Assembly: GCA_947628665.1 (NCBI GenBank)
Contig: CANRAU010000004.1
Location: forward strand, 38,359 to 102,358
DNA: 64,000 nt
Reading direction: 5' to 3'
Origin: an uncultured Clostridia bacterium
GTDB lineage: Bacteria > Bacillota > Clostridia > Oscillospirales > Acutalibacteraceae
Below, in pieces: positions 10,786 to 59,675 of this stretch; the stretch's first letter is position 1, and each line of letters begins with the position of its first letter. The notes beneath the pieces were generated by a model that was not told the origin of the DNA, did not search any database, and saw nothing but the letters and a program-made list of their open reading frames with translations. Made by a program: the position numbers and the translations under genes.

Positions 10786-10895
10786 ACTGTCACCTCAAAA
10801 AACGTAGTCAAAATATAATGATACACAATTCTGCCCGCTTGTCAAGCAAAACGAGCGTTTTTCGCAAAAAACGGGACGATTTTCAAAAGGCAGAA

Positions 10896-23368: not shown

Positions 23369-26008
23369 ATGAGAAACATAAAGAAACGAATCGGAATTCT
23401 GGTCGGCGTTTTGCTTGCCGTTTTGCTGATCTGCAGTGTAAGCGCCGTGTGCATCTATCATTTCAACCGTCCCACGGTAACGGTAGACTTTTCACAAAAA
23501 ACGGGTGAAGTGACCAACGGCGCGGCGGGTTTCTTATACGGTCTTGCCGAACCCGATATTCCGTCAACGGAAATTACCGACAGCATCGATCCGTCTTCGC
23601 TCGCGACCAAAACCGCAGGCGGCTTACAGCACCCTATCGGCGATTTGCAACAGGTCGCGGATACGTTCCTTCGCGCGGGCGGTGAAGAGCTGCTCGTATA
23701 TACGCAGGATATGTACGATACATGGTATTATGAATTCGACTCCTTGGAGCAGTACCATGAGCGTGTGCGCGAAACCGTGACCAAGACGGCGGCGCTCCCT
23801 TACGCGGATAAAGTCACCTACTGCATTTATAACGAAATGGACAACGGCGCGTGGTTCGACGATTTCGGAAATGCCGAAAACCGACAAAAGACCTATGAAG
23901 CGTGGAAAGCGACCTACGCGCTTGTCAGATCCATCGATCCGAACGCCAAAATCGGCGGTCCGAACTATTGCGGATATAATGCGGATTACATAAAAGAATT
24001 CTTGGAATACTGCAAATCGGAAAATTGCCTGCCTGACGTTATGATCTGGCACGAACTGGGGGATAATTCTCTGTATTTCCTGCAAGACCACTGCGACGAT
24101 TACGCGGCGCTTTGCAAGGAACTGGGTATCGAGGAAAAACCGATCTGCATTACGGAATACGGCCTGATGTCCTCCAACGGCATTCCGGGCGAATCCGTCA
24201 AATGGATCGAGCGCGTCGAAACGGCAAAGGTCGACGGTTGCATCGCCTATTGGCGGCTGGCAAACAATCTTTCCGAAGTCACAGCGGATGACGTCGCGCC
24301 CAACAGCAACTGGTGGGCTTACCGCTTCTATGCGCAAATGACGGGTGAAACCGTTGCCTTCACCGCAAAGGATCTGTTCCAAAGCAACATGGGGAAATTC
24401 CTGACGTTTCGGTCGAAAGGGCTTCGCTCCAAGGGCTTTACGGCACTGACCACCATAGATGAAGAAGAATCCTGTATCCATATGATCGCAGGCGGCAGCA
24501 ACCGCGATTCCACCATCCGCCTGCGGAACCTCGACAAAACGGAGAGCTTCCGCGACGCCAAACGGCTTTACGTTACAGCGGAATACGTGGATTACAAGGG
24601 CTTGGGCGGCGTTGTCACCGCGCCGAAAACCAAATTTATGCAATACGTCGATGTGAAAAACGGCAGTGCGGAAATTGAGCTGAACGATATTTTATACTCG
24701 CAGTGCTTTGATATCACGATTCGGCCCGAAACGGGCGACACCTCCTTTGTGGGTACGGAAATGACTGAGGATACCGACGCCATGCGCCGCTATGAAGCGG
24801 AGGACGCAACGCTGTTCGGCACGGCGGCTGCGACCGATCAAATCGCCTATGCCGCTTCCGAAAAAATGCTGGTCATGGCCGACAGCTCGAAAGAGAGCGG
24901 CGTGGAATTTACGGTTAAGACAGACAACGACGGCAGCTATGTTTTGGACATTGTTTACGGCAACGGCGCAAACAATATCCAAACCAATGCGGACGGCAGC
25001 GCCGATAAGGGCGAGCGCACCACGGTGAAGCTCTGGCTTTCGGTGGACGGCGGCGAACCGCAGACGCTTCTGCTCCCCTCCACCATCAAGGATGAATTTA
25101 CAAGCTGTGTCACCACAGTTGCACAGCTTTCGGCGGGAGAACACACCGTCCGTCTGACGCTTCCCGAAAATCAGAAATTCCGTGAAACGATCTCTTTGGA
25201 CTTCCTGGATGTGACGAAGGCCGAAGCCGTTCCCGCAAAAACCTATGTACAGCTTGACGGCGACCGTTCCACCGAACAAAATGCCTCTTTCCTGACGGTC
25301 GTCGATGCGGACGGCTATTACAGCGCGTGTTTTATTTGCGAAAAACAACCGACGAAGTTCACCTTAAACGGCACGACAGTGGAAAACGCGGCGTTCATGC
25401 ACCTTGATAAATCCGTATATGAGACGGTCGTTTTTTTGCACCGCGGGGTCAATTATTTGGATATTCCGCAGGAAAAGGACGGGGAGATCTCTGTCGAGAG
25501 CCTTGCGGCATACGGCGAAAAAGCTAACGGCAGCACGGTCCTTTCTGCCGAGAAGCTCACGATCTCGAACGGCGCAAAGCTCGTCAGACCCGATGCGCAA
25601 AGCGCGGATGCGGCGAAGCACCTGCAAAATACGCAGCCGTATATCGACGGTATCAACTGCGACTCGAAGGCGTCGGCTTCCTTTACCTATACCGCTGCGC
25701 AGGACGGGTACTATCAACTGACTTTCCTGTACGCCAACAATGAAGAGGGCGGCGTTCACAGCTATAACGTCGATCTGATCGAGCGTTATTTGACGCTCTT
25801 TGTCAACGGCAAGTCAGTGGGCAACGTCTTCTGCCGCAACACCTATTCCTGGGACACCTACAAAACCAAAACCGTCACCGTGTATCTGACGGCGGGGGAA
25901 AACCAAATCACCTTCTCGAATGACGGCAGCTACCGCTTCAACGGCAAAACCACCTATGCGCCGCAAATCGCCGGTGTGACCGTCTCCCCCGTTGTGCTTG
26001 CAAAATAA
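23369..26008 (+). CDS. membrane-anchored extracellular glycoside hydrolase (clan GH-A-like catalytic core) with two CBM6/35-like modules
   Basis: 879 aa with a signal-anchor (IGILVGVLLAVLLICSV). IYNEMDN and ICITEYGL look like acid/base and nucleophile strands. There are two beta-sandwich-like modules, starting at RRYEAEDATLFG and near the C-terminus (YQLTFLYAN...LFVNGKSVG). Confidence 0.55.
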   Translation: MRNIKKRIGILVGVLLAVLLICSVSAVCIYHFNRPTVTVDFSQKTGEVTNGAAGFLYGLAEPDIPSTEITDSIDPSSLATKTAGGLQHPIGDLQQVADTFLRAGGEELLVYTQDMYDTWYYEFDSLEQYHERVRETVTKTAALPYADKVTYCIYNEMDNGAWFDDFGNAENRQKTYEAWKATYALVRSIDPNAKIGGPNYCGYNADYIKEFLEYCKSENCLPDVMIWHELGDNSLYFLQDHCDDYAALCKELGIEEKPICITEYGLMSSNGIPGESVKWIERVETAKVDGCIAYWRLANNLSEVTADDVAPNSNWWAYRFYAQMTGETVAFTAKDLFQSNMGKFLTFRSKGLRSKGFTALTTIDEEESCIHMIAGGSNRDSTIRLRNLDKTESFRDAKRLYVTAEYVDYKGLGGVVTAPKTKFMQYVDVKNGSAEIELNDILYSQCFDITIRPETGDTSFVGTEMTEDTDAMRRYEAEDATLFGTAAATDQIAYAASEKMLVMADSSKESGVEFTVKTDNDGSYVLDIVYGNGANNIQTNADGSADKGERTTVKLWLSVDGGEPQTLLLPSTIKDEFTSCVTTVAQLSAGEHTVRLTLPENQKFRETISLDFLDVTKAEAVPAKTYVQLDGDRSTEQNASFLTVVDADGYYSACFICEKQPTKFTLNGTTVENAAFMHLDKSVYETVVFLHRGVNYLDIPQEKDGEISVESLAAYGEKANGSTVLSAEKLTISNGAKLVRPDAQSADAAKHLQNTQPYIDGINCDSKASASFTYTAAQDGYYQLTFLYANNEEGGVHSYNVDLIERYLTLFVNGKSVGNVFCRNTYSWDTYKTKTVTVYLTAGENQITFSNDGSYRFNGKTTYAPQIAGVTVSPVVLAK

Positions 26009-29743: not shown

Positions 29744-29780
29744 AAAAGCAGGGTGTTGCGGTAGGCAATTCCCTGCTTTT
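29744..29780 (+). terminator. rho-independent terminator of the decarboxylase operon
   Basis: AAAAGCAGGG (29744-29753) pairs with CCCTGCTTTT (29771-29780). An inner TTGC/GCAA helix adds to the stem, and T-rich sequence follows. Confidence 0.65.
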
Positions 29781-29804
29781 GCTTTTGCTTTTGCTTTTGC
29801 TTTT
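29775..29804. repeat. hexanucleotide microsatellite (GCTTTT)x5
   Basis: Five perfect tandem GCTTTT units span 29775-29804, followed by a degenerate GTGTTT unit. The repeat overlaps the terminator 3' arm. Confidence 0.9.
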
Positions 29805-29905
29805 GTGTTTCCTGCGTTTTCGCCATGTTCGGTGCGGGAAAGCCGCATTGCACAAAAAAAGCTGTCTGCTTTGATAAAGTTTAAACAAATTGAAACTTTT
29901 AAATG

Positions 29906-30880: not shown

Positions 30881-31312
30881 TTACTTTTTACGGTTGCATT
30901 GCTTATCAAAGCTCGGATTGAAGGCGTAGAAGTTCTTCTCATTCAGCCGATCGGTCGCCAAACGCAAGCCCTCGCCGAAGCGCTGGTAATGCACGATCTC
31001 GCGTTCGCGCAGGAATTTGATCGGATCGCGCACATCGGGATCGTCAACCAGACGCAGGATATTGTCATAGGTCGTTCTGGCCTTTTGCTCAGCCGCCAAA
31101 TCTTCGTGCAGATCGGTGATGACGTCGCCCTTGCTCTGAATATATGCGGCCGTGAACGGTACGCCTGCCGCAGACGAAGGATATACGCCTGTGGTATGAT
31201 CGACAAAGTAGGCGTCAAATCCGCATTTCTTGATTTGCTCGTCGCTGAGACTGCGCGTCAGCTGATAAACGATCGCACCGATCATTTCCAAATGTCCCAG
31301 TTCTTCCGTACC
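30881..31312 (-). CDS. cotJC: cotJC 3' segment (codons about 62-204 of a Mn-catalase-family spore coat protein), separated from its 5' segment by the inserted element
   Basis: From G-TEELGHLEMIGAIVYQL onward it matches the CotJC/Mn-catalase family (AAGVPFTAAYIQSKGD, EDLAAEQKARTTY, FLREREIVHYQRF). The 40 in-frame codons upstream (31313-31432) are unrelated and lie inside the element. Confidence 0.85.
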   Translation of the reverse strand, partial: GTEELGHLEMIGAIVYQLTRSLSDEQIKKCGFDAYFVDHTTGVYPSSAAGVPFTAAYIQSKGDVITDLHEDLAAEQKARTTYDNILRLVDDPDVRDPIKFLREREIVHYQRFGEGLRLATDRLNEKNFYAFNPSFDKQCNRKK

Positions 31313-31331
31313 CAGAGAAGCATCGAAAATG
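31291..31331. repeat. attL-like junction (host cotJC / element left end)
   Basis: The plus strand reads AATGTCCCAGTTCTTCCG-TACC-C-AGAGAAGCATCGAAAATG. TACC (31309-31312) is repeated at 41244-41247. The arm at 31314-31331 is the inverted partner of 41227-41244. Confidence 0.7.
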
Positions 31332-31481
31332 TTCCACAGGCCCAAAATGGCGGACAAGCCCCTTATTTTGGCTTTCCGGTACATACCTTTACGACCTCGG
31401 ATAAGGTTTGGCTGTAACACCCCTACTGCCAAGTCTGTAGTGGACTTTCACCACCAAGTTGTAATGCGCGCCGAGCGCACA

Positions 31482-31521
31482 AAGAAAGGGGCTGTATCAA
31501 AACCCCTTTCTTGTGTTTTTT
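31482..31521 (+). terminator. rho-independent terminator just inside the element left end
   Basis: A 10-bp stem AAGAAAGGGG/CCCCTTTCTT with an 11-nt loop is followed by GTGTTTTTT. Confidence 0.65.
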
Positions 31522-31553
31522 ATTTGGCAAAATCTTCTTCCGCATACCGTCGC

Positions 31554-32702
31554 GTTTTTCTACCTTATGAAATTACACTACTCTCAAACTAAAGAACTTC
31601 GTAAAAGATGACCTTCTCGTTTGTCTACCTTATGAAATTACACTACTCTCAAACCATAGCAACACAGTATTATGATCAGCTTGGTTTGTCTACCTTATGA
31701 AATTACACTACTCTCAAACGAAGCACGCACCGCCGACGTTCCACGGCAAGTTTGTCTACCTTATGAAATTACACTACTCTCAAACTGAAGTGATAGGGTC
31801 TTTCGAGAATACTAGTTTTTCTACCTTATGAAATTACACTACTCTCAAACAGTACTGGATTTTCCCGTATTGGTTCGTGTTTTTCTACCTTATGAAATTA
31901 CACTACTCTCAAACCCGTTTACGTTATTTTCAAGGCTCAAACCCGTTTTTCTACCTTATGAAATTACACTACTCTCAAACAGAATGTGAAAAGCTGAAAT
32001 TTTCTTCGGGTTTTTCTACCTTATGAAATTACACTACTCTCAAACTCGCTTACACATATTCTGCATATGGTAGCGGTTTTTCTACCTTATGAAATTACAC
32101 TACTCTCAAACCGGTTCGGATTGTTTGCAAAGTATTCATCGTTTTTCTACCTTATGAAATTACACTACTCTCAAACGACATTGCTAGTGTTATGGAAAAC
32201 GAGCCTGTTTTTCTACCTTATGAAATTACACTACTCTCAAACACTCATATGCAAAAACCGTCGACGACGCAAGTTTTTCTACCTTATGAAATTACACTAC
32301 TCTCAAACACTCATATGCAAAAACCGTCGACGACGCAAGTTTTTCTACCTTATGAAATTACACTACTCTCAAACTACCGCGAGGTCACACAAGCGATCAC
32401 GCCGGTTTTTCTACCTTATGAAATTACACTACTCTCAAACAGCCCTGTTCAAGTCGATGTTGACGGTGAGTTTTTCTACCTTATGAAATTACACTACTCT
32501 CAAACTGACTTCCGCAAATTTTTGCTTTAACCCTTGTTTTTCTACCTTATGAAATTACACTACTCTCAAACTGGCGCGTCTGTTTTCACAACTGAAATAG
32601 GTTTTTCTACCTTATGAAATTACACTACTCTCAAACCACATACCCATATGTTGCGTTGTGCGTCGAGTTTTTCTACCTTATGAAATTACACTACTCTCAA
32701 AC
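31554..32702 (-). CRISPR. CRISPR array, 18 repeats of 36 nt and 17 spacers of 28-30 nt
   Basis: The plus-strand repeat is GTTTTTCTACCTTATGAAATTACACTACTCTCAAAC, which in crRNA sense is GTTTGAGAGTAGTGTAATTTCATAAGGTAGAAAAAC. Repeat starts are 31554, 31619, 31684, 31750, 31815, 31879, 31945, 32010, 32076, 32141, 32207, 32273, 32339, 32405, 32470, 32536, 32601 and 32667. Minus-strand transcription is inferred from cas gene orientation and the tracrRNA anti-repeat. Confidence 0.97.
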
Positions 32703-32787
32703 CTCAAATCGCACAGGAGAATAAACGGCGGACACTACAAACCGTCGGGCAATTTCATAAGATAATTATATAATAAAACAATTCTTA
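32703..32787 (-). promoter_or_regulatory. CRISPR leader
   Basis: An 85-nt AT-rich spacer lies between the csn2 stop and the first repeat. The last leader bases in crRNA sense read ...GCGATTTGAG immediately before GTTTGAGAG. Confidence 0.6.
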
Positions 32788-33459
32788 TCATTTTTCAACT
32801 ATTTCACACAGATCACTGTCAACTATATACACCGCCTCCTTAAGCAAATTTCCAAAGCATTTTTTGTTTTCTATCAAAAGAATGTTAACATTCTGATAAA
32901 CAAGCTCGCTGAAAAAAAGTTCCAACTCTCCAGGCGTAAAGCAACTGTGCATGTTCAAAAACACAAAGCATTTGACCGAAGTGTATTTTTTCATAAGTTT
33001 AACAAATTCAAGGACCTTCTCAGGTATATCTTCGTTTCCGAGATCCGGCTTAAGGCATTGAATTTTAAATAGATCGGCAAGATCCAGTTCTTCCTTAAAA
33101 GTAAAATCACAGTCAAAACTCTCGTTTAACTTTTCAAGAAAAGTAAGAACATCGGCTTTTAGCGTAGCTGTTTGATCAATCATATAATTACATGCATAGA
33201 ATGTAAAATCTTCATACAGTTTCTTTATAAGAGAAGAAGAAAAATCAAGGCTGTAAAGATTAGGCACAAAACAAACATTACCCTTAAATCTCAGAGGTTC
33301 ATAGTTTTCGGAAAACACTATGCCGCAGTTTTTCGGGCATTCGGAAAATAAATTTACCACCGTATTTCTGTACAGTCTCTGATTTTCAATATACAGTGAA
33401 CTTGCTTTTTCCGACGAAAGCTCTATCGGTTCGGATAAAAAGTCAAAACTTACCATCAT
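32788..33459 (-). CDS. csn2: Csn2 (type II-A marker protein)
   Basis: 223 aa. It occupies the position after cas2 and before the array, and its size and acidic, Phe/Leu-rich composition are typical of short Csn2 proteins. It overlaps the cas2 stop by 4 nt. Confidence 0.75.
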   Translation of the reverse strand: MMVSFDFLSEPIELSSEKASSLYIENQRLYRNTVVNLFSECPKNCGIVFSENYEPLRFKGNVCFVPNLYSLDFSSSLIKKLYEDFTFYACNYMIDQTATLKADVLTFLEKLNESFDCDFTFKEELDLADLFKIQCLKPDLGNEDIPEKVLEFVKLMKKYTSVKCFVFLNMHSCFTPGELELFFSELVYQNVNILLIENKKCFGNLLKEAVYIVDSDLCEIVEK

Positions 33460-33776
33460 AATATTAAAAGCCTTTCATCGCTGTCAACAACATTGCCAAC
33501 GCTTTTTCCGGATATTATTTCCATTTTAGAATACTGCTTTTCCGTTATGGAAAGTATATACACTATACCTTTTTCCGGCTGCGCTTTTTTAACATCGGTA
33601 ACTATCTGCACAACCTGCGTTGAATTAAGGGCAAGCTTGGAATAAACGGATTCCTGTATCATCATAAAACCGCCTTTTATAAGAAATCTTCTGAATTTAC
33701 TGTAATTTCGCCTGTCGGCAGCCGTTTCCGTGGGCAAATCAAAAAATACCAAAACTCTCATAAATCTATAACTCAT
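33456..33776 (-). CDS. cas2: Cas2
   Basis: 106 aa. The sequence begins MSYRFMRVLVFFDLPTET...IQESVYSK, typical of type II Cas2. Confidence 0.9.
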   Translation of the reverse strand: MSYRFMRVLVFFDLPTETAADRRNYSKFRRFLIKGGFMMIQESVYSKLALNSTQVVQIVTDVKKAQPEKGIVYILSITEKQYSKMEIISGKSVGNVVDSDERLLIL

Positions 33777-34644
33777 AGCTGTAAAATCTTATAAGCGCCG
33801 TATCTTCGCTTTCAACAGCATCAAAAACACTTTTTGAATAAATTTTAATTGTGTTGAGTAGGGATTGCTTTTTTCCGTCAACAATGAATTCCTCACTTAA
33901 AAGCCTGAGAATCCGTTTCTTTTCCTCACTTTCAAATTTTTCGGGAGAAAGTGATTTTACCGCCCTGTCGATTATCGGACGAAAAGGTTCCATAATATCA
34001 CAGCCCAAATTAAACTGATTGAACATATTGTTGTGATGCAAACCGAGCATCGTTGAATATCCGCAGCACACTATTTCCCGGTTAAAGCAAGAAAGAATAA
34101 TGCTGTAGCCGTAGTTAAGAGCGGCATTTACAGGGCACTCATCGCTTCTTGAAAATTTTTTGCCAAAAAGAGCATTAAAATACACTTTGGCGGAATGCCC
34201 CTCCCGATTTGTTTCGTCGTTAAATTCGATTCCATCAATATACGAATACAGTTTTGATGCCTCGGGAATTTTAAAATACTCCAGATTCATAGCCTGCATT
34301 TTTATTTTCTGTGTAACGATGGCCGTCCAAACTGCCTGCTTTGAAAGCTCGCTCCATGCAAGCTGATTTCTGAATTTCAGCGAGCAATCGTGGCAACCGT
34401 AATATGAAACGAGCTCCGACGAAGGATTTTGCTTTTCATCGCAAAAAATCACCTTTATTTTTTGCTTTGTCAACTCGCTCAACAAAGCGGCTGTAACGGA
34501 GGACGCGGTATTTTCAATGATAAGCACCGATATTTCGCTTATATGCACGCGAACGGAACCTTCGGCATCGCGCACCACCATATATCCGAGCCTTAAATCA
34601 AGCTTTGATGATTTTGAAACTACCACAGTCCTCCAGCCCATCAT
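33766..34644 (-). CDS. cas1: Cas1
   Basis: 292 aa. Motifs are GWRTVVVS...LDLRLGYMVV and a C-terminal NAALNYGYSI...DIMEPFRPIID. Confidence 0.9.
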   Translation of the reverse strand: MMGWRTVVVSKSSKLDLRLGYMVVRDAEGSVRVHISEISVLIIENTASSVTAALLSELTKQKIKVIFCDEKQNPSSELVSYYGCHDCSLKFRNQLAWSELSKQAVWTAIVTQKIKMQAMNLEYFKIPEASKLYSYIDGIEFNDETNREGHSAKVYFNALFGKKFSRSDECPVNAALNYGYSIILSCFNREIVCCGYSTMLGLHHNNMFNQFNLGCDIMEPFRPIIDRAVKSLSPEKFESEEKKRILRLLSEEFIVDGKKQSLLNTIKIYSKSVFDAVESEDTALIRFYSYEL

Positions 34645-34658
34645 TTTTTCTCCTTATT

Positions 34659-37600
34659 TCAACGAATTTTCATCAGATCAACTTCCTGCTCATAAAGCCC
34701 TGTTACGGATTGATTGATCAGCTTTGCAGAGCTGTAGCCCGATTGCAATTTATTGCTTATAGACGTTACGCCGCATTTTTTGGCCTCGCCCAACAATGTT
34801 AAATCTCCAATCATAACATTGGCGTGCAGAATATTCAGAATTTGCTTTATTACGCAACACTGCTGATACAGCGAAAGCACGCAAAAGTCTTCTTTTTTAT
34901 TCCGGAGCTTTTTACCGAGACTTGCAAATTTTGACTTGAATACGGTGTTTACCATTTTATCGGTTATCGTATTAAAAATATCCATATTCTTTTCCGCCTC
35001 GATTCCGTCATAGGCGGTTATTTCTTTTTCCTTTTTGATCTCATCGCATTTATTAAGATAGTTCATTATTGTTTTTACATACGATTCCCGCTCATCGCCA
35101 AGAACAAGCTGAACAGCAGGCTTGCAGACAATTTGTGATCCTCCATTGCTTTTTGAGCTTATATGCATTCTGAAGCCGTCAATGCTTATAAGCGCGTTAT
35201 ATTTTACACAAGGGATAAGTATTTTTACCGTATCTTTTTCAACACCGAGCCTTTCGGCGATGAATGCAACGGGGTCGGTAGTATATTCATTTTCTCTATA
35301 CTTATCCACAGGCTCAAAGGAGCGAATCTTTTTGCCTTTTTTATCCGTATATGCAACAAATGCAAAAAACGACGATGACGGAGCATTGTATCCGCCATAT
35401 TTTTCTATAGCAAGGCCTTTTTTGCGTTCCACCTGACCAAAGCCTTTTTTCAACGGATTCTGATCAAACAAACCACCCTGTTGTTTAAAGGCATATCGCG
35501 TGAATCTTACATTGTTTTTTGCCATAGTCGATCTTACCACACTGATCGATTTGTTGTTTTCTGTTTCCCACGCGCCCTTTGTCGGATAGTCAAACATTCT
35601 GTTAAAGCTTTGACGACCGCTTAGAATATCGGAATAAAACTTATGACTTGAAGCCTTTACCGTGTAAACGTTGCCTACAACGATATTGAGATATGCATCT
35701 TTTGCATGGTGAATATCGTTCACTTCTCTGCATTTCGGCATTTTAAAATCTTTTCTGAAATCGGACACAAGCCCCGCTTTTATATACTCCACGTCCGTTT
35801 CGGGGTAGCGTTTTTTCAAAAGCTGTGCCACCGCCTTTGTGGACTGCCTTGTTTCAACAAGCTGCCTGGATATAAATTCGTTTAATTCCTCTTCGGAAAG
35901 CGGCGTGTTTCTTACAAGGCGTTCAAATTTTCGCTTGCTGATGAGTTCCTTTGAGAGAAGCAGTTTCCAAAACGAGCGCATTTTTTCTCTGATTTCAGGG
36001 ATTATCGGATAATCATCTCCTTTCTTTTGATTCGCATCTTTGGAAACAAGCACTCTGTTGTCAATGCTGTCATCCTTTAGCTTAGAGCGCGGGAAAATAT
36101 GGTCTATATCATAGTTCGTGCTTAATTCGTCAAGATTTATGCATTCACCGGTATACATACACTTGCCGAACTGTGCGTAATACAGATAGAGAGCGTCGCG
36201 CTGCAAATCGTTTTCATTGGTATTTTTAAGGTTCTCATAAAGCTCTCCCTGTTCCTCTCCGCATTTTTTGTAGAGTTCGATCAAGCTTTGCTTTCTTGAT
36301 ATTTTTCTTTCCTTTTTGCCTTCAAAGCGCGTGACCTCGACGAATATCTTTTCGGGCGCGCCGCCCTGAATTTTTACGATTTCCTCAACTATCTGCATCG
36401 TCTGATAAATCGGCCTTTTTATTTTTGGCGAGACATACAGATCTTCAACCTCCTGCTTAAGCGAAGTAAATGCGCCAGCACCGTTTTCTCTGTCTATATT
36501 TTCTCTGAATTGATAATTTTTGCTGAGCAGTTTCATAAGATTGTCGTTTGTTTCCCAAAGGGCGTGTATAATGTTTGTCACCTCGCCGGTTTCGGGCAAA
36601 ACGCTTTCTATCCCTGTAAGCAGTTTTCGGGAAAGCCTGCTCCAGCCTGTAAATTTCAGCCTGCAAAGCTTAGTGATCTCTTCATCCGTTAATCTGCCGC
36701 CGTAATTCTTTTGAATCCTTTTTTTCAGCAGCTTTTTATCATCTCCGAATATAGTTATCGATTTTATGATATCTTCTTTGTCGCTGTCCGGCAGGCCGAT
36801 GAAATCAAGCTCCCTGTATGCCTTCAAACTGCTTTTGAAATCGCCGTCAACGCCCGAAATTACAACGTTTTCAAGCCCTTTTGCTCTGAAATAATCTACA
36901 AGCGCTTTATACGTGACCTTGTTTTTGCGCATAAACAAATCTCTGTATATCGACTGTTTCATTTCAACCGTGATCGGTTCACCGTCGGCTTTCAGATTGT
37001 TTAGCTCATTGAGCACCATATACGATGAATACAAAAGAGAGTTTTTGGGAATGACGTCCTCTTTAGGAAGATACGTGCATTTGCTTGTAAGATTATCTAT
37101 AAACTTTTCGGCGCTTGCATCGGTATCGACCACCTTTTCAAAATTCCACGGATATATTTTTTCTTTCGTTCTCACAAGCCAGTGCTTCTCGCTGTGTTCA
37201 TTGAGCGGGCCAACATAATAAGGTACTCTGAAACTGAATATATCGATTATCTTTTCGCTTACGGTTTTGCCGCTTTCATCCAATTCTTTAAGGAACGGTA
37301 GATATTCTTGCGCGTTTTTCAGTATCGCCTTAAGCTCTTCCCTGTTTATCTGCATAGGAATAACGGAATTGTTCTTGGTAACGTCCTTGGGCATAAATGT
37401 GCCTGCGTCTATTTCAGCAAACATTTTTACATATTTTTCATCCACGTCATCTTTTGGAAGCTGCTTTTTCAAAAATTCGCAGAAAAGTTCCTGCGAGCAT
37501 TTTTTCATAACCGGCTGTTTACTCGAATGCCCGGAATAAGCAAGATAATTATTCGTACCGCTTACATTTTCGTTAAATATCAAGTCATACTTTTCGGGCG

Positions 37601-38615
37601 CAAAAGCTTTTACATATTCTTTCAGCAATTTAAGATCGCTTTTGTGCTTGTTATATTCGTTTACCTTTGCAAAGGAGATATATTTTTTCCCGCCGTATAC
37701 ATCAGCATCGCCGCATATATCGGCAAGAACAGCCCAATCGTAAAGCGCTTTCAACTTTTCTATCAATTCAAACCTTTCACCGAAAAAGCTCTCATATATA
37801 TCGTGCTTTTCATCATAGCCGTTTTTGAAAGAAACGGTTTTTGCATCGGTCTTGTCAAATTCATCGGTTTGAAAAATGTTCTTGGCGTTGACTTTGGCTC
37901 CCGAAAGGAGATTCAGCAAGGCTGTCTCAAACGAATTTTCTTTTTTGCTCAATCCTAATTCCTTTATCAGCGCCTCGCTTTTTTGTTTTATTCCCAACGA
38001 ACGATCTTTCAGTATATCTTCTACAGACGATAAGTTTTCAGCATAAAGTTCGGAATCGTAATTATCCCTCAGATATGTATTTAGTTCTCTCCAAATCGCG
38101 GAAAAATCATTGTTGCCTGTTCCGAGATCATCGCTTTCAAAAAGAAAATGTCCTCTGTTTTTTACAATATGGCTAACCACAAGATAAACGAGCCTTACAT
38201 CGTGCGCAGCCGGATTAACGATCAATTCTTTGCGCAGATGATATATGGTAGGATATTCTTTATGATATTCCTTATCCGTATAATTCTTATCATTAAACAG
38301 GGAATATCTTCCTTCAACAGTCTTATCACCGTCATACAAGGCACTGTCCTTAAGCCTTTGAAAAAAGGATATATCGACTTTAGCGATTTCTTTATTAAAC
38401 AGCATTTCAAGGCATTCGAGCCTGAATTTGCTTCGCTGCCTTCTTCTGCGATCGCTTCTGTAACCTCTTCGTTCCGCCGCAGTCTCACCGCCGTCAAAAA
38501 GCCTTATCCCCCACATTGCGTTTCCCTTGAATTTTGGGATATGGTACTCCTCATCGGTAACCGCCCAGCCTATGGAATCCGTGCCTATATCGAGTCCCAA
38601 ATAATATTTTTCCAT
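34659..38615 (-). CDS. cas9: Cas9 (type II-A)
   Basis: The start is set at the ATG at 38615 (AGGGGGAG RBS). RuvC-I is YYLGLDIGTDSIGWAV, HNH is YDIDHIFPRSKLKDDSIDNRVLV, and RuvC-III is DIHHAKDAYLNIVVG. Length is about 1318 aa. Confidence 0.95.
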   Translation of the reverse strand: MEKYYLGLDIGTDSIGWAVTDEEYHIPKFKGNAMWGIRLFDGGETAAERRGYRSDRRRRQRSKFRLECLEMLFNKEIAKVDISFFQRLKDSALYDGDKTVEGRYSLFNDKNYTDKEYHKEYPTIYHLRKELIVNPAAHDVRLVYLVVSHIVKNRGHFLFESDDLGTGNNDFSAIWRELNTYLRDNYDSELYAENLSSVEDILKDRSLGIKQKSEALIKELGLSKKENSFETALLNLLSGAKVNAKNIFQTDEFDKTDAKTVSFKNGYDEKHDIYESFFGERFELIEKLKALYDWAVLADICGDADVYGGKKYISFAKVNEYNKHKSDLKLLKEYVKAFAPEKYDLIFNENVSGTNNYLAYSGHSSKQPVMKKCSQELFCEFLKKQLPKDDVDEKYVKMFAEIDAGTFMPKDVTKNNSVIPMQINREELKAILKNAQEYLPFLKELDESGKTVSEKIIDIFSFRVPYYVGPLNEHSEKHWLVRTKEKIYPWNFEKVVDTDASAEKFIDNLTSKCTYLPKEDVIPKNSLLYSSYMVLNELNNLKADGEPITVEMKQSIYRDLFMRKNKVTYKALVDYFRAKGLENVVISGVDGDFKSSLKAYRELDFIGLPDSDKEDIIKSITIFGDDKKLLKKRIQKNYGGRLTDEEITKLCRLKFTGWSRLSRKLLTGIESVLPETGEVTNIIHALWETNDNLMKLLSKNYQFRENIDRENGAGAFTSLKQEVEDLYVSPKIKRPIYQTMQIVEEIVKIQGGAPEKIFVEVTRFEGKKERKISRKQSLIELYKKCGEEQGELYENLKNTNENDLQRDALYLYYAQFGKCMYTGECINLDELSTNYDIDHIFPRSKLKDDSIDNRVLVSKDANQKKGDDYPIIPEIREKMRSFWKLLLSKELISKRKFERLVRNTPLSEEELNEFISRQLVETRQSTKAVAQLLKKRYPETDVEYIKAGLVSDFRKDFKMPKCREVNDIHHAKDAYLNIVVGNVYTVKASSHKFYSDILSGRQSFNRMFDYPTKGAWETENNKSISVVRSTMAKNNVRFTRYAFKQQGGLFDQNPLKKGFGQVERKKGLAIEKYGGYNAPSSSFFAFVAYTDKKGKKIRSFEPVDKYRENEYTTDPVAFIAERLGVEKDTVKILIPCVKYNALISIDGFRMHISSKSNGGSQIVCKPAVQLVLGDERESYVKTIMNYLNKCDEIKKEKEITAYDGIEAEKNMDIFNTITDKMVNTVFKSKFASLGKKLRNKKEDFCVLSLYQQCCVIKQILNILHANVMIGDLTLLGEAKKCGVTSISNKLQSGYSSAKLINQSVTGLYEQEVDLMKIR

Positions 38616-38629
38616 TCTTAAACTCCCCC

Positions 38630-38658
38630 TTGACAAAGCAAGAATTATGGATTATACT
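38630..38658 (+). promoter_or_regulatory. consensus sigma-A promoter of the tracrRNA, divergent from cas9
   Basis: TTGACA (38630-38635), 17 nt, TATACT (38653-38658). The -35 box lies 15 nt upstream of the cas9 ATG on the opposite strand. Confidence 0.65.
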
Positions 38659-38664
38659 TAAGGT

Positions 38665-38784
38665 ATCTCAACGCCTTATGAGATTACACTACAAGTTCAA
38701 ATAAAAATTTATTCAACCCGCCGTGAAAGCGGCATCACAGTGTGTGAGCGTGGCCTGCGATATAAGCAGGCCTTTATTTTTTTT
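38665..38784 (+). ncRNA. tracrRNA
   Basis: The anti-repeat CCTTATGAGATTACACTACAAGTTCAAAT (38674-38702) is complementary to the crRNA repeat, with one G:U pair and a 2-4 nt bulge. A small CCGC/GCGG hairpin follows, then the terminator GGCCTGC-GATATAA-GCAGGCC-TTTATTTTTTTT (38752-38784). The 5' end is inferred from the promoter. Confidence 0.8.
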
Positions 38785-39273
38785 AAAAATTGCGCCAATT
38801 TTTTCAACAAAATGTTACCATATTTTTCTAATTGTGTAAAGGAGAGGTTTCTTTGCACCGATTTTAGGACTTAAAAATCAGGTGAAAACAGCAGTATTTT
38901 TGTTTATGCTTTTGCCGTCCGATGTAACCTCACGGGATAAGCCGCCAACGGAGGTAAAAAGCTCATCTTATAATCGCCGCAGGTGAAACCACAATTTACA
39001 CCAAAATAATGCTGCAAAAGTGTGTTGTTATATGTAGAAACTCTCGGCGGGCGTTTTCTTATTAAGTGAACACCCCGTATCAGATTGCAAAAAAGAATTA
39101 GCCCCCTCGTTATCACGATGCGAGAATGGAATTTCGCATCGTATCAACGTTCTGTCAAGGCTTTAAGGATGGAGATTTTCGCCGGAAAATACGATCCGTG
39201 CCTTGACAGGTTGTTATATGGGACAATCACAGGCTCATATACTTATTGAGAACGAGGGAGGTGTTGGTAACTG

Positions 39274-39477
39274 TTGCATCGAGAATTTGTTTATGTGGGT
39301 GCTCCTGTCCCAGATTTGGATGGGCAGGAATACGCAGCGTTCCTTTTGAACATTCAAAAGTCAATCCTCTTTTCTTTGGAGCATAGAAAACTATTGACCC
39401 CTTCACAGCGGGAACGCTGTTTGGTTGCGCTTGAAAATCAGTACAGTCAAAAAGAGAGGAATAAGCGCCAAGCATAG
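39274..39477 (+). CDS. small hypothetical protein (67 aa) upstream of the recombinase
   Basis: A TTG start sits 12 nt after GAGGGAGG. The sequence is MHREFVYVGAPVPDLDGQEYAAFLLNIQKSILFSLEHRKLLTPSQRERCLVALENQY.... The stop codon lies in the loop of a terminator hairpin. Confidence 0.4.
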   Translation: MHREFVYVGAPVPDLDGQEYAAFLLNIQKSILFSLEHRKLLTPSQRERCLVALENQYSQKERNKRQA

Positions 39478-39492
39478 CCGCTTGGCGTTTTT
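39466..39492 (+). terminator. rho-independent terminator after the small ORF
   Basis: An 8-bp stem CGCCAAGC/GCTTGGCG with a 6-nt loop is followed by TTTTT. Confidence 0.55.
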
Positions 39493-39600
39493 ACATATAG
39501 AGAAATGTGCAAATTTGAAATTCGCACATTCGACAGAACCACCGCCCTTATTTACAATAGAAATAACGGCAGCAGAGGTTGCTGGGAAAGGAGTATTGGA

Positions 39601-41409
39601 ATGAACAAATACGAACTCTTAAACCAAGAGCGCAAATTCGTTGATAAGAAAAAACGAGTTGCGGCTTATTGCCGAGTTTCAACCGATAACGAAGATCAAG
39701 CAAACTCTTTTGAAAGTCAGCAGCGGTATTTCCGGCAATATATCGAGCGCAATCCCGATTGGGAACTTTATGAGATATTTGCCGATGAGGGAATATCCGG
39801 TACAAACACCAAGAAGCGCAAAGAGTTTAACCGCATGATTGCCTGTGCTAAAAACGGGGATTTTGATTTGATTATCACAAAAGAGATCTCCCGCTTTGCC
39901 AGAAACACGCTCGACAGCATTTACTATACCCGTGACTTGAAAAAGCATGGTGTAGGTGTTATCTTTATGAATGACAACATCAACACAATGGACGGCGACG
40001 CAGAGCTGCGCCTTGCCATTATGTCCTCTATCGCACAGGAGGAAAGCCGAAAGACCTCGGAGCGTGTGAAGTGGGGGCAGAAACGCCAGATGGAACAAGG
40101 CGTCGTTTTCGGCAGGGATATGCTCGGTTACGATGTCCGTGGCGGTAAAATGTATATCAATGAAGAAGGGGCAAAAATCGTTCGCCTTATCTTCCATAAG
40201 TTTGTTGTCGAGGGAAAAGGCACTCATGTTATCGCTCGTGAGCTTCGGGAGGAAGGCATTGAACCTATGCGGGTAAAGGAATGGCAGAACACGGTCATTC
40301 TCCGCATTATCCGCAACGAAAAATACTGCGGCGATCTGGTACAGAAAAAAACTTATACGCCGGACTTCCTATCCCATGAGAAAAAGTACAACCGTGGGCA
40401 GGAGGAATTCGTCATTATTAAAGATCACCATGAGCCAATCATTTCCCGTGAGCTGTTCGATGAAGCCAATCGGATTTTAGACGAACGCTCTTTATCGCCG
40501 GAGGGAAAGGCGAAGCACTCAAACCGCTATCCGTTCTCTGGAAAAATCAAATGCGGATGCTGCGGCGCAAGCTATGTGGCAAGGTATAAGACCCGCAAGG
40601 ACGGAAGCCGATATAAGGCGTGGCGTTGTCTGGAAGCCGCCCGAAACGGCAGCCCGCATATAGATAAGGCGGGCAATCAAGTCGGTTGCACAGCCCCAAG
40701 TATCCGAAACGAGGACGCAACACATCTCATGTATCTCGTTACCAAAGACTTAAAATTCAACCGGCAGAAAATCACGGATAACCTGCTTTCCATTATCAAA
40801 TCCATTATCGCTATGGATACCACAGGGTCGGATGTAGAAAAAATGAAAGCGAAAATCAAAGCGATCGAGGACAACCGAGCCAAGCTGATTGACCTCTATA
40901 TGTCGAATGTCATAACCAAAGAGGAATTTGCAGACGCCAGAGTAAAGTACGACAGTGAAATTGCCGAGCTGCAATCGGTCATCGACAGCATGGATAAACA
41001 GCAGGCACAGATACCGCAACAGCAAGAGCTTATCCAAGAGATAAGCGTGTCAATCAAAGAGATCATCGGCGGCGTGGAATACGAAGATGCGTTTTACAGA
41101 CGGATTTTAGAAAGAATAGTCGTGAATGACCGTGACAATATAGATGTATATCTGCATTTACTTCCAATCAAGTGGAGCTATACGGCTCTTAAAGCGTCAA
41201 AAAAAGCGTTAGCCCCTAAAATGGTTCATTTTAGGGGCTTCTCTACCTATATCCGTCAGCAGACCTTTCAGTTCCGCATAAGGCATAGAGAAGCGTTGGG
41301 AAAGATAGCGCAACGATGCACCCAATTCGCCGTCCGGCCCGCCATACTGGCTGATAATGATCTGTGCATATTTCGGGTTGGGGGTTTTGATTCTTACGGG
41401 ATACTGTAA
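39601..41409 (+). CDS. large serine recombinase (resolvase domain + recombinase domain + zinc ribbon + coiled coil)
   Basis: The ATG at 39601 follows GGAAAGGAG. The catalytic-Ser motif is VAAYCRVSTDNEDQ. Other motifs are ITKEISRFARN, IAQEESRKTSERVKWG and the Cys cluster KCGCCGASY...WRC...GC. The ORF runs 54 codons past the element boundary (41244) into antisense cotJC. Confidence 0.88.
   Translation: MNKYELLNQERKFVDKKKRVAAYCRVSTDNEDQANSFESQQRYFRQYIERNPDWELYEIFADEGISGTNTKKRKEFNRMIACAKNGDFDLIITKEISRFARNTLDSIYYTRDLKKHGVGVIFMNDNINTMDGDAELRLAIMSSIAQEESRKTSERVKWGQKRQMEQGVVFGRDMLGYDVRGGKMYINEEGAKIVRLIFHKFVVEGKGTHVIARELREEGIEPMRVKEWQNTVILRIIRNEKYCGDLVQKKTYTPDFLSHEKKYNRGQEEFVIIKDHHEPIISRELFDEANRILDERSLSPEGKAKHSNRYPFSGKIKCGCCGASYVARYKTRKDGSRYKAWRCLEAARNGSPHIDKAGNQVGCTAPSIRNEDATHLMYLVTKDLKFNRQKITDNLLSIIKSIIAMDTTGSDVEKMKAKIKAIEDNRAKLIDLYMSNVITKEEFADARVKYDSEIAELQSVIDSMDKQQAQIPQQQELIQEISVSIKEIIGGVEYEDAFYRRILERIVVNDRDNIDVYLHLLPIKWSYTALKASKKALAPKMVHFRGFSTYIRQQTFQFRIRHREALGKIAQRCTQFAVRPAILADNDLCIFRVGGFDSYGIL
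41227..41262. repeat. attR-like junction (element right end / host cotJC)
   Basis: The plus strand reads CATTTTAGGGGCTTCTC-TACC-TATATCCGTCAGCAG. The arm at 41227-41244 is the inverted partner (15/18) of 31314-31331. Confidence 0.7.
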
Positions 41410-41430
41410 TTTTTTCTCATATTGAAACAT
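41245..41430 (-). CDS. cotJC: cotJC 5' segment (codons 1-62)
   Basis: MFQYEKKLQYPVRIKTPNPKYAQIIISQYGGPDGELGASLRYLSQRFSMPYAELKGLLTDIG matches the CotJC N-terminus. As integrated, the ORF continues for 11 unrelated codons (REAPKMNHFRG) to a stop at 41209. Confidence 0.85.
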
Positions 41431-41433
41431 AGC

Positions 41434-41697
41434 TTACCTCACACACTCCTCTACATCCCACGGCCAGGGATTTTGCAGCCAGCTCGCGCCGCTGCCCGAA
41501 CGGGCGGTCAACGGGCCGTATTTGTCTTCAAAGGCTTCCTTTAACTGTTTGTATTTGACCATATATTTTTGAAGCCTTTCCATGGCTTCACAGTCGTCGG
41601 GATGCGTATCCAAATATAAGTGCAGTTCCCAAAGCACAAATTGTGCGGCGGAAAGCTCTTGCAGGCACTTTTCACGCTCAGTCATCATCATATACAT
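41434..41697 (-). CDS. cotJB: spore coat protein CotJB
   Basis: 87 aa. The segment LQELSAAQFVLWELHLYLDTHPDD is typical of CotJB. Confidence 0.85.
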   Translation of the reverse strand: MYMMMTEREKCLQELSAAQFVLWELHLYLDTHPDDCEAMERLQKYMVKYKQLKEAFEDKYGPLTARSGSGASWLQNPWPWDVEECVR

Positions 41698-41936
41698 TTA
41701 CCTCCCAAAAACGGCTTGTCGAGGTCGGGGAACAGCGTACCGCGGCTTAAAGCCTTGTCGGCCTCATACATGCACGTATCAATTTGAAACGGTACATATG
41801 CCATTGCGCTGACGGGATTTTTCGGCAGCTTGGAAAGCCCTGTATATACGGACGGGTCCGCCGCCGAACACGAAGCGCAGGAGGAATTTGCCTGTGCGCC
41901 CGCTGCGCAATAGTCCAAATAGTCTTTCAAAGTCAT
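41688..41936 (-). CDS. cotJA: spore coat-associated protein CotJA
   Basis: 82 aa. It carries the family signature AMAYVPFQ...ALSRGTLFPDLDKPF. Confidence 0.8.
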   Translation of the reverse strand: MTLKDYLDYCAAGAQANSSCASCSAADPSVYTGLSKLPKNPVSAMAYVPFQIDTCMYEADKALSRGTLFPDLDKPFLGGKCI

Positions 41937-42174
41937 GACTCCTTTTCTTTTTTTATCGGAACAATCCTTCTACAGCATCTTATGCCGCGTTCGGCGGTTG
42001 GTGCGGGATTTGGGACTATGTCTGCTCTGGAAAGAAGCGTTTCAAGGGTAAGCGCAAAATAGTCCACAAATTTTCCTGCGGATTTTTGTGGATTTGTAGC
42101 ATTGAAATGGCCCTTGTATTTATGTAGAATGAACATAAGAATCATTGAATCTCAGGGAAAAAGGAGAGAGGTCT

Positions 42175-58403: not shown

Positions 58404-59675
58404 TTAAGAGGCGTTGATAACGACCTCCACGACGTTGTATGAATCGGCGGCCGCGCAGATCGGCGCGACCGAATCGGCCTCTTGCCAGTCCGATTCTGTG
58501 ACGGCAATCCGGCCGGATTGTTTGAAAGGAGACTCAGAAGAATCGTTAAGAAAGTCAATATAAACATACTTCTTGGTTATATCGGCGGTTACAACTTCTT
58601 TATTGATCTCATATTCCAGTTTATTGCTGCACGCCACACGCACAAACTCACCGCTATGTTCAAACGCTATCCGTGTATCTATATCCGATAAATAACCTCT
58701 GTCATACCACATGGCGAAATATAGACTAAAATCCAAGTCAGGAGACAGAACCAGCACATCGGCAGGATCTACTTCTTCAAGCGAACAAGGCGTATCGCTT
58801 TGCATAATGACAACGGTATTAAAAGAATAAGTTTCATCATTTGTCACGGGGTCTGTAGGATGTTTGCCAAAGAAATAGCCGAAAAATCCGGCCACCAAAG
58901 AAATGCATACGATGATCCCGGAGACGGTCAAAAGACCTTTCTGAATACGATCGGTTCGTCTGTACATTTTTTTGTTATACAAGCTGTAGGTCGGTTGGTG
59001 CAGTTTGCGGACACTTCTGCTTGCAGCAATCAGCAAAGACAAAATAAATAGATAAAAAACACAGGTCGCTGCTGTGATCCATGGCGCAGCCGTTATATTT
59101 CCAACTCTGCCGTATGTGCTTAAACAGGAAAAGTCCCCCGTAAGGATGCAAAAAAGAGCCAAAACGAGCGGTGAGCATATTGAATCCATAATCATGATTT
59201 GAAGCGGATAGGTCAGTAAAAAGACAACAATCGACAAACCGCACAAAAATCGGTTCTTCCGCTTTTTCCCAAGGATCGAAAGTTCAATAATGCAAAACAA
59301 ACGCAAAAGTTCCGATACGCCGAATCCGATTATACCGTCGCCCAAGACATAGAATTTATAACACGCGATTATAAAAAGCAGAAAAATGATCCCTAAGACC
59401 GCAAAAACGGTGTTTGCTGCGTAATCTTGCGGGTAAATCTCCGAAAATGCGGCGGCGACCGCATCGGGATCGCCCATCTGCTCGACCGCCTTTTGCGCCG
59501 CCTGCGCCTCGTCAAAGCCGATTTCTTTGTAATACTCGATTCTGTCATCGATGTGCGCGGCCAGTTCCAAAGCCGCCTCATGTTTGTCCGAATCGTTTTC
59601 GATTTGGGAAACGGCGGCGTTGATATATTCCTCTTTGGTCGTGACGCACTTTCCTTTTTCTATCGGTTCACGCAT
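58404..59675 (-). CDS. PadR-associated polytopic membrane protein (permease-prefix / DUF1700-like N-terminus)
   Basis: 423 aa. The N-terminus is ...HEAALELAAHIDDRIEYYKEIGFDEAQAAQKAVEQMGDP, followed by multiple TM helices. It overlaps the padR stop by 8 nt. Confidence 0.55.
   Translation of the reverse strand: MREPIEKGKCVTTKEEYINAAVSQIENDSDKHEAALELAAHIDDRIEYYKEIGFDEAQAAQKAVEQMGDPDAVAAAFSEIYPQDYAANTVFAVLGIIFLLFIIACYKFYVLGDGIIGFGVSELLRLFCIIELSILGKKRKNRFLCGLSIVVFLLTYPLQIMIMDSICSPLVLALFCILTGDFSCLSTYGRVGNITAAPWITAATCVFYLFILSLLIAASRSVRKLHQPTYSLYNKKMYRRTDRIQKGLLTVSGIIVCISLVAGFFGYFFGKHPTDPVTNDETYSFNTVVIMQSDTPCSLEEVDPADVLVLSPDLDFSLYFAMWYDRGYLSDIDTRIAFEHSGEFVRVACSNKLEYEINKEVVTADITKKYVYIDFLNDSSESPFKQSGRIAVTESDWQEADSVAPICAAADSYNVVEVVINAS

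Follow-up and report, generated by a model that had tools for sequence, protein, structure and literature searches.

In a stretch of 64 kb from the genome of an uncultured Clostridia bacterium of the Acutalibacteraceae (contig CANRAU010000004.1; the whole stretch is called the window, and all coordinates are window positions unless another contig is named), the coat gene cotJC occurs in two pieces separated by an element of 9,935 bp (31313-41247), the main content of which is a complete type II-A Cas9 system. The locus raises the question of what kind of element this is, and whether its host has simply lost cotJC or rebuilds the gene by excising the element during sporulation. As judged from the sequence, it is well supported that the element is precise, site-specific, driven by a large serine recombinase and has moved recently. 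Coupling of its excision to sporulation appears probable to us, at roughly 0.6, a value we chose because the coupling rests on conserved promoter motifs and on analogy.

The split coat gene and its empty sites

The genes are located on the minus strand in the order cotJA (41688-41936; Pfam CotJA, E = 4.3e-18), cotJB (41434-41697; Pfam CotJB, E = 1.2e-25) and the 5' piece of cotJC (41245-41430), whose translation comprises codons 1-62 and matches positions 1-65 of the Pfam Mn_catalase profile (E = 1.5e-19). After these 62 residues, the respective open reading frame (ORF; 41209-41430) runs into 11 unrelated codons encoded by the element and a stop codon, resulting in a product of 73 amino acids. 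The 3' piece (30881-31309, minus strand) was identified by translation as codons 63-204 plus the stop codon; it is contained in a second ORF (30881-31432), which matches positions 61-198 of the same Pfam profile from the residues TEELGH onward (E = 7.7e-32). Each junction carries the core sequence TACC, at 31309-31312 on the left side (attL) and at 41244-41247 on the right side (attR), and deleting the 9,935 bp between the two copies yields an in-frame cotJC gene of 204 codons (...LLTDIG-TEELGH...) directly behind cotJA and cotJB. The insertion point lies between codons 62 and 63, so that the restored junction reads …GGT|ACG…, and we take it from the TEELGH motif to fall inside the conserved metal-binding ExxH helix of the protein. 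An initial annotation of the window had described an in-frame split of cotJC by a recombinase-bounded element, and all ORF, TACC and 204-codon features on which it was based were found in the sequence.

Joining the two pieces in silico gave a protein whose alignments with over 100 uninterrupted homologues showed 87-98% identity and covered 97-100% of the length (100% for most), and exactly this protein of 204 amino acids is on record on 16 public contigs. Because the alignment is nearly full length, the two pieces are colinear, do not overlap and belong to the same gene rather than to different paralogues, which confirms their earlier assignment to one cotJC.

Uninterrupted alleles, for which the initial annotation had proposed to search related genomes, were also found. 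The predicted attB of 32 nucleotides (5'-CCCAGTTCTTCCGTACCTATATCCGTCAGCAG-3'; the corresponding attP is predicted as 5'-CATTTTAGGGGCTTCTCTACCCAGAGAAGCATCGAAAATG-3') was present verbatim in all six conspecific empty-site contigs examined (L099-L104). The flanks of these contigs are 95-98.6% identical to the window at the nucleotide level over most of the flank available per side, up to about 10 kb, with alignment breakpoints at window positions 41238 and 31312. They also share its gene order of an MFS transporter gene, cotJABC, a CmpB-like gene, the oxaloacetate decarboxylase genes and an ORF of 879 amino acids. In a related organism (L001), the genes cotJA-cotJB-cotJC are uninterrupted as well, and the alignment to the window breaks exactly at GGTA. 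Filled alleles coding for the exact truncated product of 73 amino acids were present on six other contigs, five of which are L105-L109. The filled contig L107 differed from the empty contigs L102 and L104 by 0.1% over 1.1 kb of adjacent host sequence, and distance clustering of the host haplotypes showed filled and empty alleles interspersed. Such near-identical haplotypes with and without the element indicate that the insertion is polymorphic and was gained or lost more than once in the species.

The recombination module and its family

The recombinase gene (39601-41409, plus strand) codes for a large serine recombinase of 602 amino acids in the integrated state. Its Resolvase, Recombinase and Zn_ribbon_recom domains (PF00239, PF07508 and PF13408) all scored above the Pfam cut-offs, and the protein matched a PHROG integrase family (E = 5e-134). 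Ser27 in a YCRVST motif, which was read by eye, is presumably the catalytic serine. The gene is preceded by a sigma-70-type promoter (TCGACA-17-TACAAT, 39530-39558, plus strand) close to the family consensus TCGACA-N17-TATAAT. The initial annotation had the recombinase gene abutting the right junction, which is correct in that it is located at the right edge of the element, but the ORF actually continues across attR: residues 1-548 are encoded by the element, and the tail is read from host DNA. There is no stop codon before the crossover, and as long as the element is integrated, the last ~54 residues (41244-41409) are read antisense to cotJC. Excision is predicted to swap this tail for a different one of 35 residues, giving 583 instead of 602 amino acids. 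Because some relatives (e.g., L082) stop before the junction, the read-through tail is not a rule of the family.

Scanning species-representative genomes (one genome per species) yielded 408 stretches encoding relatives of the recombinase, and the counts out of 80 given here refer to the best 80 of these 408, with 75-97% recombinase identity. The hosts of these 80 are Lachnospiraceae, Oscillospiraceae, Ruminococcaceae, Acutalibacteraceae and unclassified Clostridia, many of them from rabbit and mouse gut. In the order given, a small gene (orf67, 39274-39477, plus strand), the recombinase gene, antisense cotJC codons 1-62, cotJB and cotJA were present in 69 of the 80 loci; among the remaining loci, two are oriented the other way round, two are cut off by a contig edge, and seven others are mostly nested or tandem insertions. 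The recombination module (39213-41247) consists of orf67 and the recombinase gene, and no other gene is common to all family members. Complete members range from 3.0 to about 10 kb, the smallest being 3.0-3.8 kb, and carry genes for Phd/ParE, Fic, ParA, AbiEi/AbiEii, MatE efflux pumps, an ABC-F protein or PemK, as well as for a Cap4-type nuclease with an SMC-like ATPase. By these sequence criteria, the module defines a large family which targets cotJC in gut Clostridia.

A further split of the cotJC 5' piece near codons 19-32 was observed in L026 (3405-8181), L044, L052, L054, L059, L061 and L085. The large serine recombinase of this second element is unrelated (26-34% identity), indicating at least two independent insertion hot spots in cotJC.

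The attP site is an imperfect inverted repeat (CATTTTAGGGGCTTCTC-TACC-CAGAGAAGCATCGAAAATG), whose P arm (GGAACATTTTCGATGCTTCTCTGGG on the cotJC coding strand) belongs to the left end of the element (31313-31553). Compiling the junctions of the family resulted in GAT-ATH-GG on the host side, A(G/C)(A/G)GAAGCCYCTRAAATG on the element side and GGAACATTYCNATGCTTCTCTGG at the far end of the element. At locus L019, only GG is common to both junctions. In L003-L005 (recombinase at 10001-12094), the same codon is occupied by an element in opposite orientation, and GG takes the place of CC behind the recombinase-proximal arm, which would be expected if the core dinucleotide sets the orientation. Taken together, the shared GG of L019 and the flipped core of L003-L005 suggest that the crossover dinucleotide is probably GG/CC, i.e., CC within the TACC core of attR and GG on the cotJC coding strand. 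A palindromic central dinucleotide TA had also been considered as the cause of opposite-orientation insertions and was dropped for the flipped GG/CC core on the basis of the junction table. In the members with opposite orientation (L003-L005; proteins P0154-P0158, P0169 and others), the recombinase ORF runs in frame into the cotJC 3' piece, which predicts recombinase-Mn-catalase fusions of about 697 amino acids. Just inside the element, a hairpin with a T-run (41207-41239, minus strand; -19.8 kcal/mol, z-score -4.4) faces the truncated cotJC; it is kept across the family in the junction table and looks like a terminator.

The second gene of the module, orf67, codes for 67 amino acids from a TTG start codon behind the ribosome-binding site GGGAGGTG and is located just upstream of the recombinase gene in 77 of the 80 loci. 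Its sequence variation by codon position is 0.216/0.111/0.400, a pattern indicating a genuine coding gene on which purifying selection acts; moreover, no stop codon occurs in 62 distinct sequences, and the other two frames are closed. The protein had no match in Pfam, NCBIfam or PHROGs and has 128 cluster representatives among 1.84 billion proteins. Single-sequence structure prediction gave a plain two-helix hairpin with a predicted local distance difference test score (pLDDT) of 84. By analogy to known systems (see below), we consider orf67 a candidate gene for a recombination directionality factor. A hairpin followed by five T (39463-39490, plus strand; -17.7 kcal/mol, z-score -4.3), which overlaps the orf67 stop codon (39475-39477) and reaches just beyond it, is conserved in the family and terminator-like.

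Directly upstream of orf67, a sigma-E-type motif was recognised (ATA-N17-CATATACT, 39216-39243, plus strand). It is part of a block GTT-ATA-YGGKACAANCANTNGCT-CATAYATT, in which ATA, CATA and the spacer element ACAA-C are nearly invariant in 74 sequences. The strict pattern ATA-N17-CATAYANT matched once in the 64-kb window, compared with 0.11 matches expected by chance, and recurs at the same position in most family loci fetched. Homology of the window to its closest relatives begins at 39213, which is the start of this block. ATA at -35 is typical of sigma-E and AC of sigma-K (PMC3789822), and the combination of ATA at -35 and CATA at -10 upstream of orf67 represents the sigma-E signature. Judged by this match to the consensus, the promoter of orf67 may be sigma-E-dependent. 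A sigma-K promoter was ruled out, because there is no AC 16-17 nucleotides upstream of CATA. The spacer element ACAA-C resembles a SpoIIID box.

Upstream of cotJA, the sequence reads as a sigma-K-type promoter motif (AC-N16-CATAAGAT, 41977-42002, minus strand). Motifs of this class (AC-N16/17-CATANNNT) precede cotJA in 46 of 61 loci, compared with none of the 61 for the sigma-E class. From what is known of Bacillus subtilis and Clostridioides difficile, cotJABC should be expressed in the mother cell. The window also contains a gene for a SpoIVB-type sporulation signalling peptidase (7896-9143, minus strand; Pfam Peptidase_S55 and PDZ), indicating that the host possesses sporulation machinery and is a spore former.

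The DNA of the recombination module is 86.6-95.3% identical (92-95% for most relatives) to that of elements in hosts whose flanks no longer align with the window, and such near-identical modules between non-aligning flanks indicate recent horizontal transfer. Searching with a degenerate attP pattern returned four metagenome contigs in which an intact attP connects the recombinase gene at its 3' end with the left end of an element. These contigs contain no cotJC flanks and belong to other family members. No attP junction was found in IMG/VR. Upstream of the junction, one of the attP contigs (L089:1-9160) has several large ORFs whose N-termini look like signal peptides, and beside the recombination module, another (L090:1-14406) codes for a PemK-like toxin as well as an ABC/FtsX transporter and a two-component system; because of these extra genes, some family members may be much larger or reside in other replicons. 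The best recombinase relative on known plasmids or cultured phages shares 49.5% identity, and no transfer vehicle was identified on this basis.

The CRISPR-Cas9 cargo and its surroundings

The initial annotation gave no account of the cargo of the element, a CRISPR-Cas9 system which is complete for type II-A as judged from its genes. On the minus strand, it contains cas9 (34659-38615; 1318 amino acids from ATG), cas1 (33766-34644; Pfam Cas_Cas1), cas2 (33456-33776; Pfam CRISPR_Cas2) and the type II-A signature gene csn2 (32788-33459; Pfam Cas_Csn2; NCBIfam Csn2, E = 2.5e-35). The Cas9 protein matched the Pfam families Cas9_REC, Cas9_PI, HNH_4, Cas9_RuvC and Cas9-BH as well as the NCBIfam Cas9 model (E = 1.8e-267), is 100% identical to one protein record (P0241), and its RuvC and HNH motifs look intact by eye. 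The position between csn2 and the first repeat identifies the leader (32703-32787, minus strand), which is followed by the CRISPR array (31554-32702, minus strand) of 18 repeats of 36 nucleotides (GTTTGAGAGTAGTGTAATTTCATAAGGTAGAAAAAC in the sense of the CRISPR RNA) and 17 spacers of 28-30 nucleotides, one of them duplicated. Divergently from the cas genes, a trans-activating CRISPR RNA (tracrRNA) is predicted at 38665-38782 (plus strand, approximate ends) from a sigma-70-type promoter (TTGACA-17-TATACT, 38630-38658), a 25-nucleotide anti-repeat (~38671-38695) and a terminator (38752-38772). In an Rfam scan of the whole window, no hit exceeded the thresholds of the families, the element had no meaningful hits, and no model matched the tracrRNA. 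Between the tracrRNA terminator and the orf67 promoter, about 430 bp (38783-39212) contain no recognisable genes or convincing ORF; part of this region (39031-39113) shares 74-81% identity with the corresponding position of the relatives L007-L009 and L011.

Apart from the cas genes, orf67 and the recombinase gene, no genes were recognised in the element. We found no phage structural, packaging or lysis genes in it, the recombinase being its only protein with a PHROG match, and no conjugation genes (relaxase, coupling protein, type IV secretion) among the ORFs and Pfam matches of the 9.9 kb. The G+C content of the element is 0.35-0.42, compared with about 0.5 for the flanks. The nearest other cas9 genes (86% and 83% identity) are part of ordinary chromosomal loci, one of them in a rabbit-gut genome, without recombinase or cotJC, which indicates that the Cas9 block was captured rather than inherited with the recombination module. 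DNA homology to the rabbit-gut locus covers window positions 31553-38787, exactly from the array through the tracrRNA, and therefore the block appears to have been captured as a unit. None of the 80 recombinase-related loci contains cas genes inside the element; a Cas9 gene in L024 is located outside of it.

The same element was present in other samples at 97.6-99.3% identity and with the same spacers. Spacers 6 and 7 from the leader are identical (32243-32338), and contig L098 from another sample contains one copy of them and otherwise the same spacers. In the same low-coverage contig (L098:354-4309), cas9 is split into ORFs of 1026 and 288 amino acids. No protospacers were found for the whole array in 50,697 phage records (INPHARED) or for three of the spacers in IMG/VR. 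All spacers showed only chance matches of 13-14 nucleotides to the window and 1.43 Mb of fetched loci, which argues against self-targeting and against targeting of rival cotJC elements. Signs of active immunity, i.e., protospacers or spacer turnover between samples, were not found, although missing matches do not imply that the system is inactive.

Outside of the element, a perfect microsatellite (TGCTTT, 5.3 copies, 29774-29805) is located between the gene for the beta subunit of oxaloacetate decarboxylase and the CmpB-like gene. The 879-aa ORF mentioned above (23369-26008, plus strand) has no Pfam match and is conserved in the conspecific contigs L099-L101, likewise without Pfam matches, and an ORF of 423 amino acids (58404-59675, minus strand) has no Pfam match at E <= 1e-5.

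Proposed sporulation-coupled excision and known systems

If excision is coupled to sporulation, the recombinase would be made constitutively from its sigma-A-type promoter and would on its own only integrate the element (attP x attB). Production of the orf67 protein as directionality factor would then enable it to join attL and attR, and the element would leave as a circle, restoring cotJC exactly before sigma-K transcribes cotJABC. Because of the order of the sigma factors, with E for excision and K for cotJABC, the gene would be repaired before its use. The forespore chromosome would keep the element, and the Cas9 system would thereby be inherited. An extension of this scheme, which we regard as doubtful, is that sigma-E drives excision in the doomed mother cell only, and that the circles, equipped with attP, the recombinase gene and cargo such as an entire Cas9 system, are released at lysis and taken up by neighbouring Clostridia, while the forespore keeps its copy. 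It would explain the near-identical modules in the same cotJC codon across families and also the interspersed filled and empty sites within the species.

Several observations weigh against developmental excision. Carriers and non-carriers coexist in the species, which shows that the host can do without the element. A purely selfish element would be expected to have the same types of cargo and the same recent transfer. Neither an attB junction from a carrier strain nor an attP junction molecule was found for this particular element, and the four attP contigs of other members could be excised or non-integrated forms or tandem copies. Furthermore, orf67 is not homologous to known directionality factors, the sigma-E-type block can also be read to contain part of a sigma-A extended -10 motif (TGGTACAAT), the last T of which is not conserved, and agreement of the SpoIIID-like box with the B. 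subtilis consensus was limited to 11 of the 74 family members. A possible, if less probable, alternative is that the element is an ordinary mobile cassette in a conserved and dispensable cotJC gene, which would be inactivated in the carriers, with excision being rare, stochastic or unrelated to sporulation. The accessory and defence cargo of the family (AbiE, ParE/Phd, Fic, PemK, MatE, ABC-F and Cas9) is typical of such cassettes; the recent transfer between distant hosts, the deviating G+C content and the polymorphism in the species also fit this alternative, and the second, unrelated recombinase element in cotJC of several genomes suggests a tolerated landing pad. This alternative leaves unexplained why a sigma-E-type rather than a sigma-A-type motif is strictly conserved before orf67 in most family loci fetched, and why the module starts exactly at this motif. 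The two explanations are not mutually exclusive, because SPbeta is both mobile and developmentally excised (PMC4191935).

It is very unlikely that the element is a decayed, immobile remnant with a dead recombination system, which would make the insertion a fixed pseudogenising scar. The lack of spacer turnover between samples and of an attP contig for this element as well as the split cas9 in L098 would fit such decay, but the recombinase has its full length and shares 97% identity with relatives, the two att arms agree with the consensus of the family, orf67 is intact, the empty sites are exact, and near-identical host haplotypes occur with and without the element. Hardly any weight remains for an assembly chimera in which the Cas9 block was misjoined to cotJC in a metagenome bin. 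The genome was probably assembled from a metagenome, and breaks close to the recombinase module are frequent in related contigs, but the junctions were reproduced elsewhere: recombinase-orf67-cas9 in the independent assembly L096, csn2-array-cotJC 3' piece in L098, and cotJC 5' piece-element in L105-L109. Intact att sites and genes, exact empty sites and junctions recurring in independent assemblies thus make both a remnant and an artefact unlikely.

The distribution of the family suggests that one module, a small gene with a sigma-E motif and a serine recombinase, colonised the same cotJC codon in many uncultured gut Clostridia of the Lachnospiraceae, Oscillospiraceae and relatives, and that it ferries defence and addiction genes. 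The family is apparently undescribed: our literature search, the coverage of which was incomplete, returned no description of a recombinase family targeting cotJC in gut Clostridia, of its module of small gene and sigma-E motif, or of a CRISPR-Cas9 system as cargo of an intervening element in a sporulation gene. If excision is coupled to sporulation as proposed, programmed gene reconstitution would extend from pathogens and bacilli to commensal gut spore formers, the module would offer a natural, compact pair of recombinase and directionality factor with defined 40-bp sites, and Cas9 systems would have a new way to move between species. If release at mother-cell lysis also proved true, sporulation would routinely pass defence systems horizontally between spore formers of the gut.

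Established cases of sporulation genes with intervening elements are sigK, spsM, gerE, spoVFB, spoVR and yabG. The resemblance to skin- and SPbeta-type elements proposed in the initial annotation was borne out by all expected sequence features, namely the precise in-frame split of a gene whose operon has sigma-K-type promoter motifs, identical short cores, an imperfectly palindromic attP and exact empty sites. In skin(Cd), the recombinase CD1231 is expressed constitutively (sigma-A), and CD1234, a protein of 72 amino acids without database homologues, is the directionality factor, whose control by sigma-E and SpoIIID confines excision to the mother cell (PMC5025042). The cotJC element shares with skin(Cd) the interruption of a mother-cell sporulation gene by an element with a large serine recombinase at its edge, a sigma-A-type recombinase promoter, an orphan gene of about 70 codons with a sigma-E-type promoter motif and a SpoIIID-like box, exact restoration of the frame by excision (predicted in our case), and absence from some strains. 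It differs in its target (cotJC instead of sigK), in carrying a Cas9 system instead of prophage-remnant cargo, and in the small gene being located directly upstream of the recombinase gene; orf67 and the recombinase are likened to CD1234 and CD1231 by their arrangement. In addition, excision was shown experimentally for skin(Cd) and is predicted for the cotJC element.

SPbeta is a 134-kb active phage, whereas the cotJC element contains no phage genes. Located in spsM of B. subtilis, SPbeta combines mobility with developmental excision and expresses its recombinase independently of a directionality factor under sporulation control (SprA/SprB; PMC4191935, PMC5499854); our model has the same for the cotJC element. 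The recombinase of the latter is only distantly related to SprA (PDB 9dxh, E = 5e-12). The gin element in gerE of Bacillus cereus ATCC 10987 is also a non-phage element with a recombinase and a small accessory factor (GirC/GirX; PMC5595907); it differs in target gene, recombinases and host group, and the abstract mentions no defence cargo. The same target gene is affected in Laceyella sacchari, a single species of the bacillus class, for which Galperin et al. (bioRxiv 10.1101/2022.02.25.481979) mention a "skin-like element" of cotJC in one sentence and a table, while the passages concerned do not describe site, family, regulatory module or cargo.

As a small cassette with accessory cargo, which is inserted by a large serine recombinase at one conserved chromosomal site, the cotJC element also resembles SCCmec and its Ccr recombinases. 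CcrB is the best NCBIfam match of the cotJC-element recombinase, but only with 133 bits compared with a model cut-off of 900, and SCCmec differs in target and host group and has no developmental link. CRISPR-Cas loci are carried by several kinds of mobile elements, namely plasmids, phages and Tn7-like CRISPR-associated transposons. Nothing suggests that Cas9 guides the integration of the cotJC element itself. Compared with these carriers, the element presents a complete adaptive type II-A system on a serine-recombinase cassette of about 10 kb, which is inserted in a sporulation gene.

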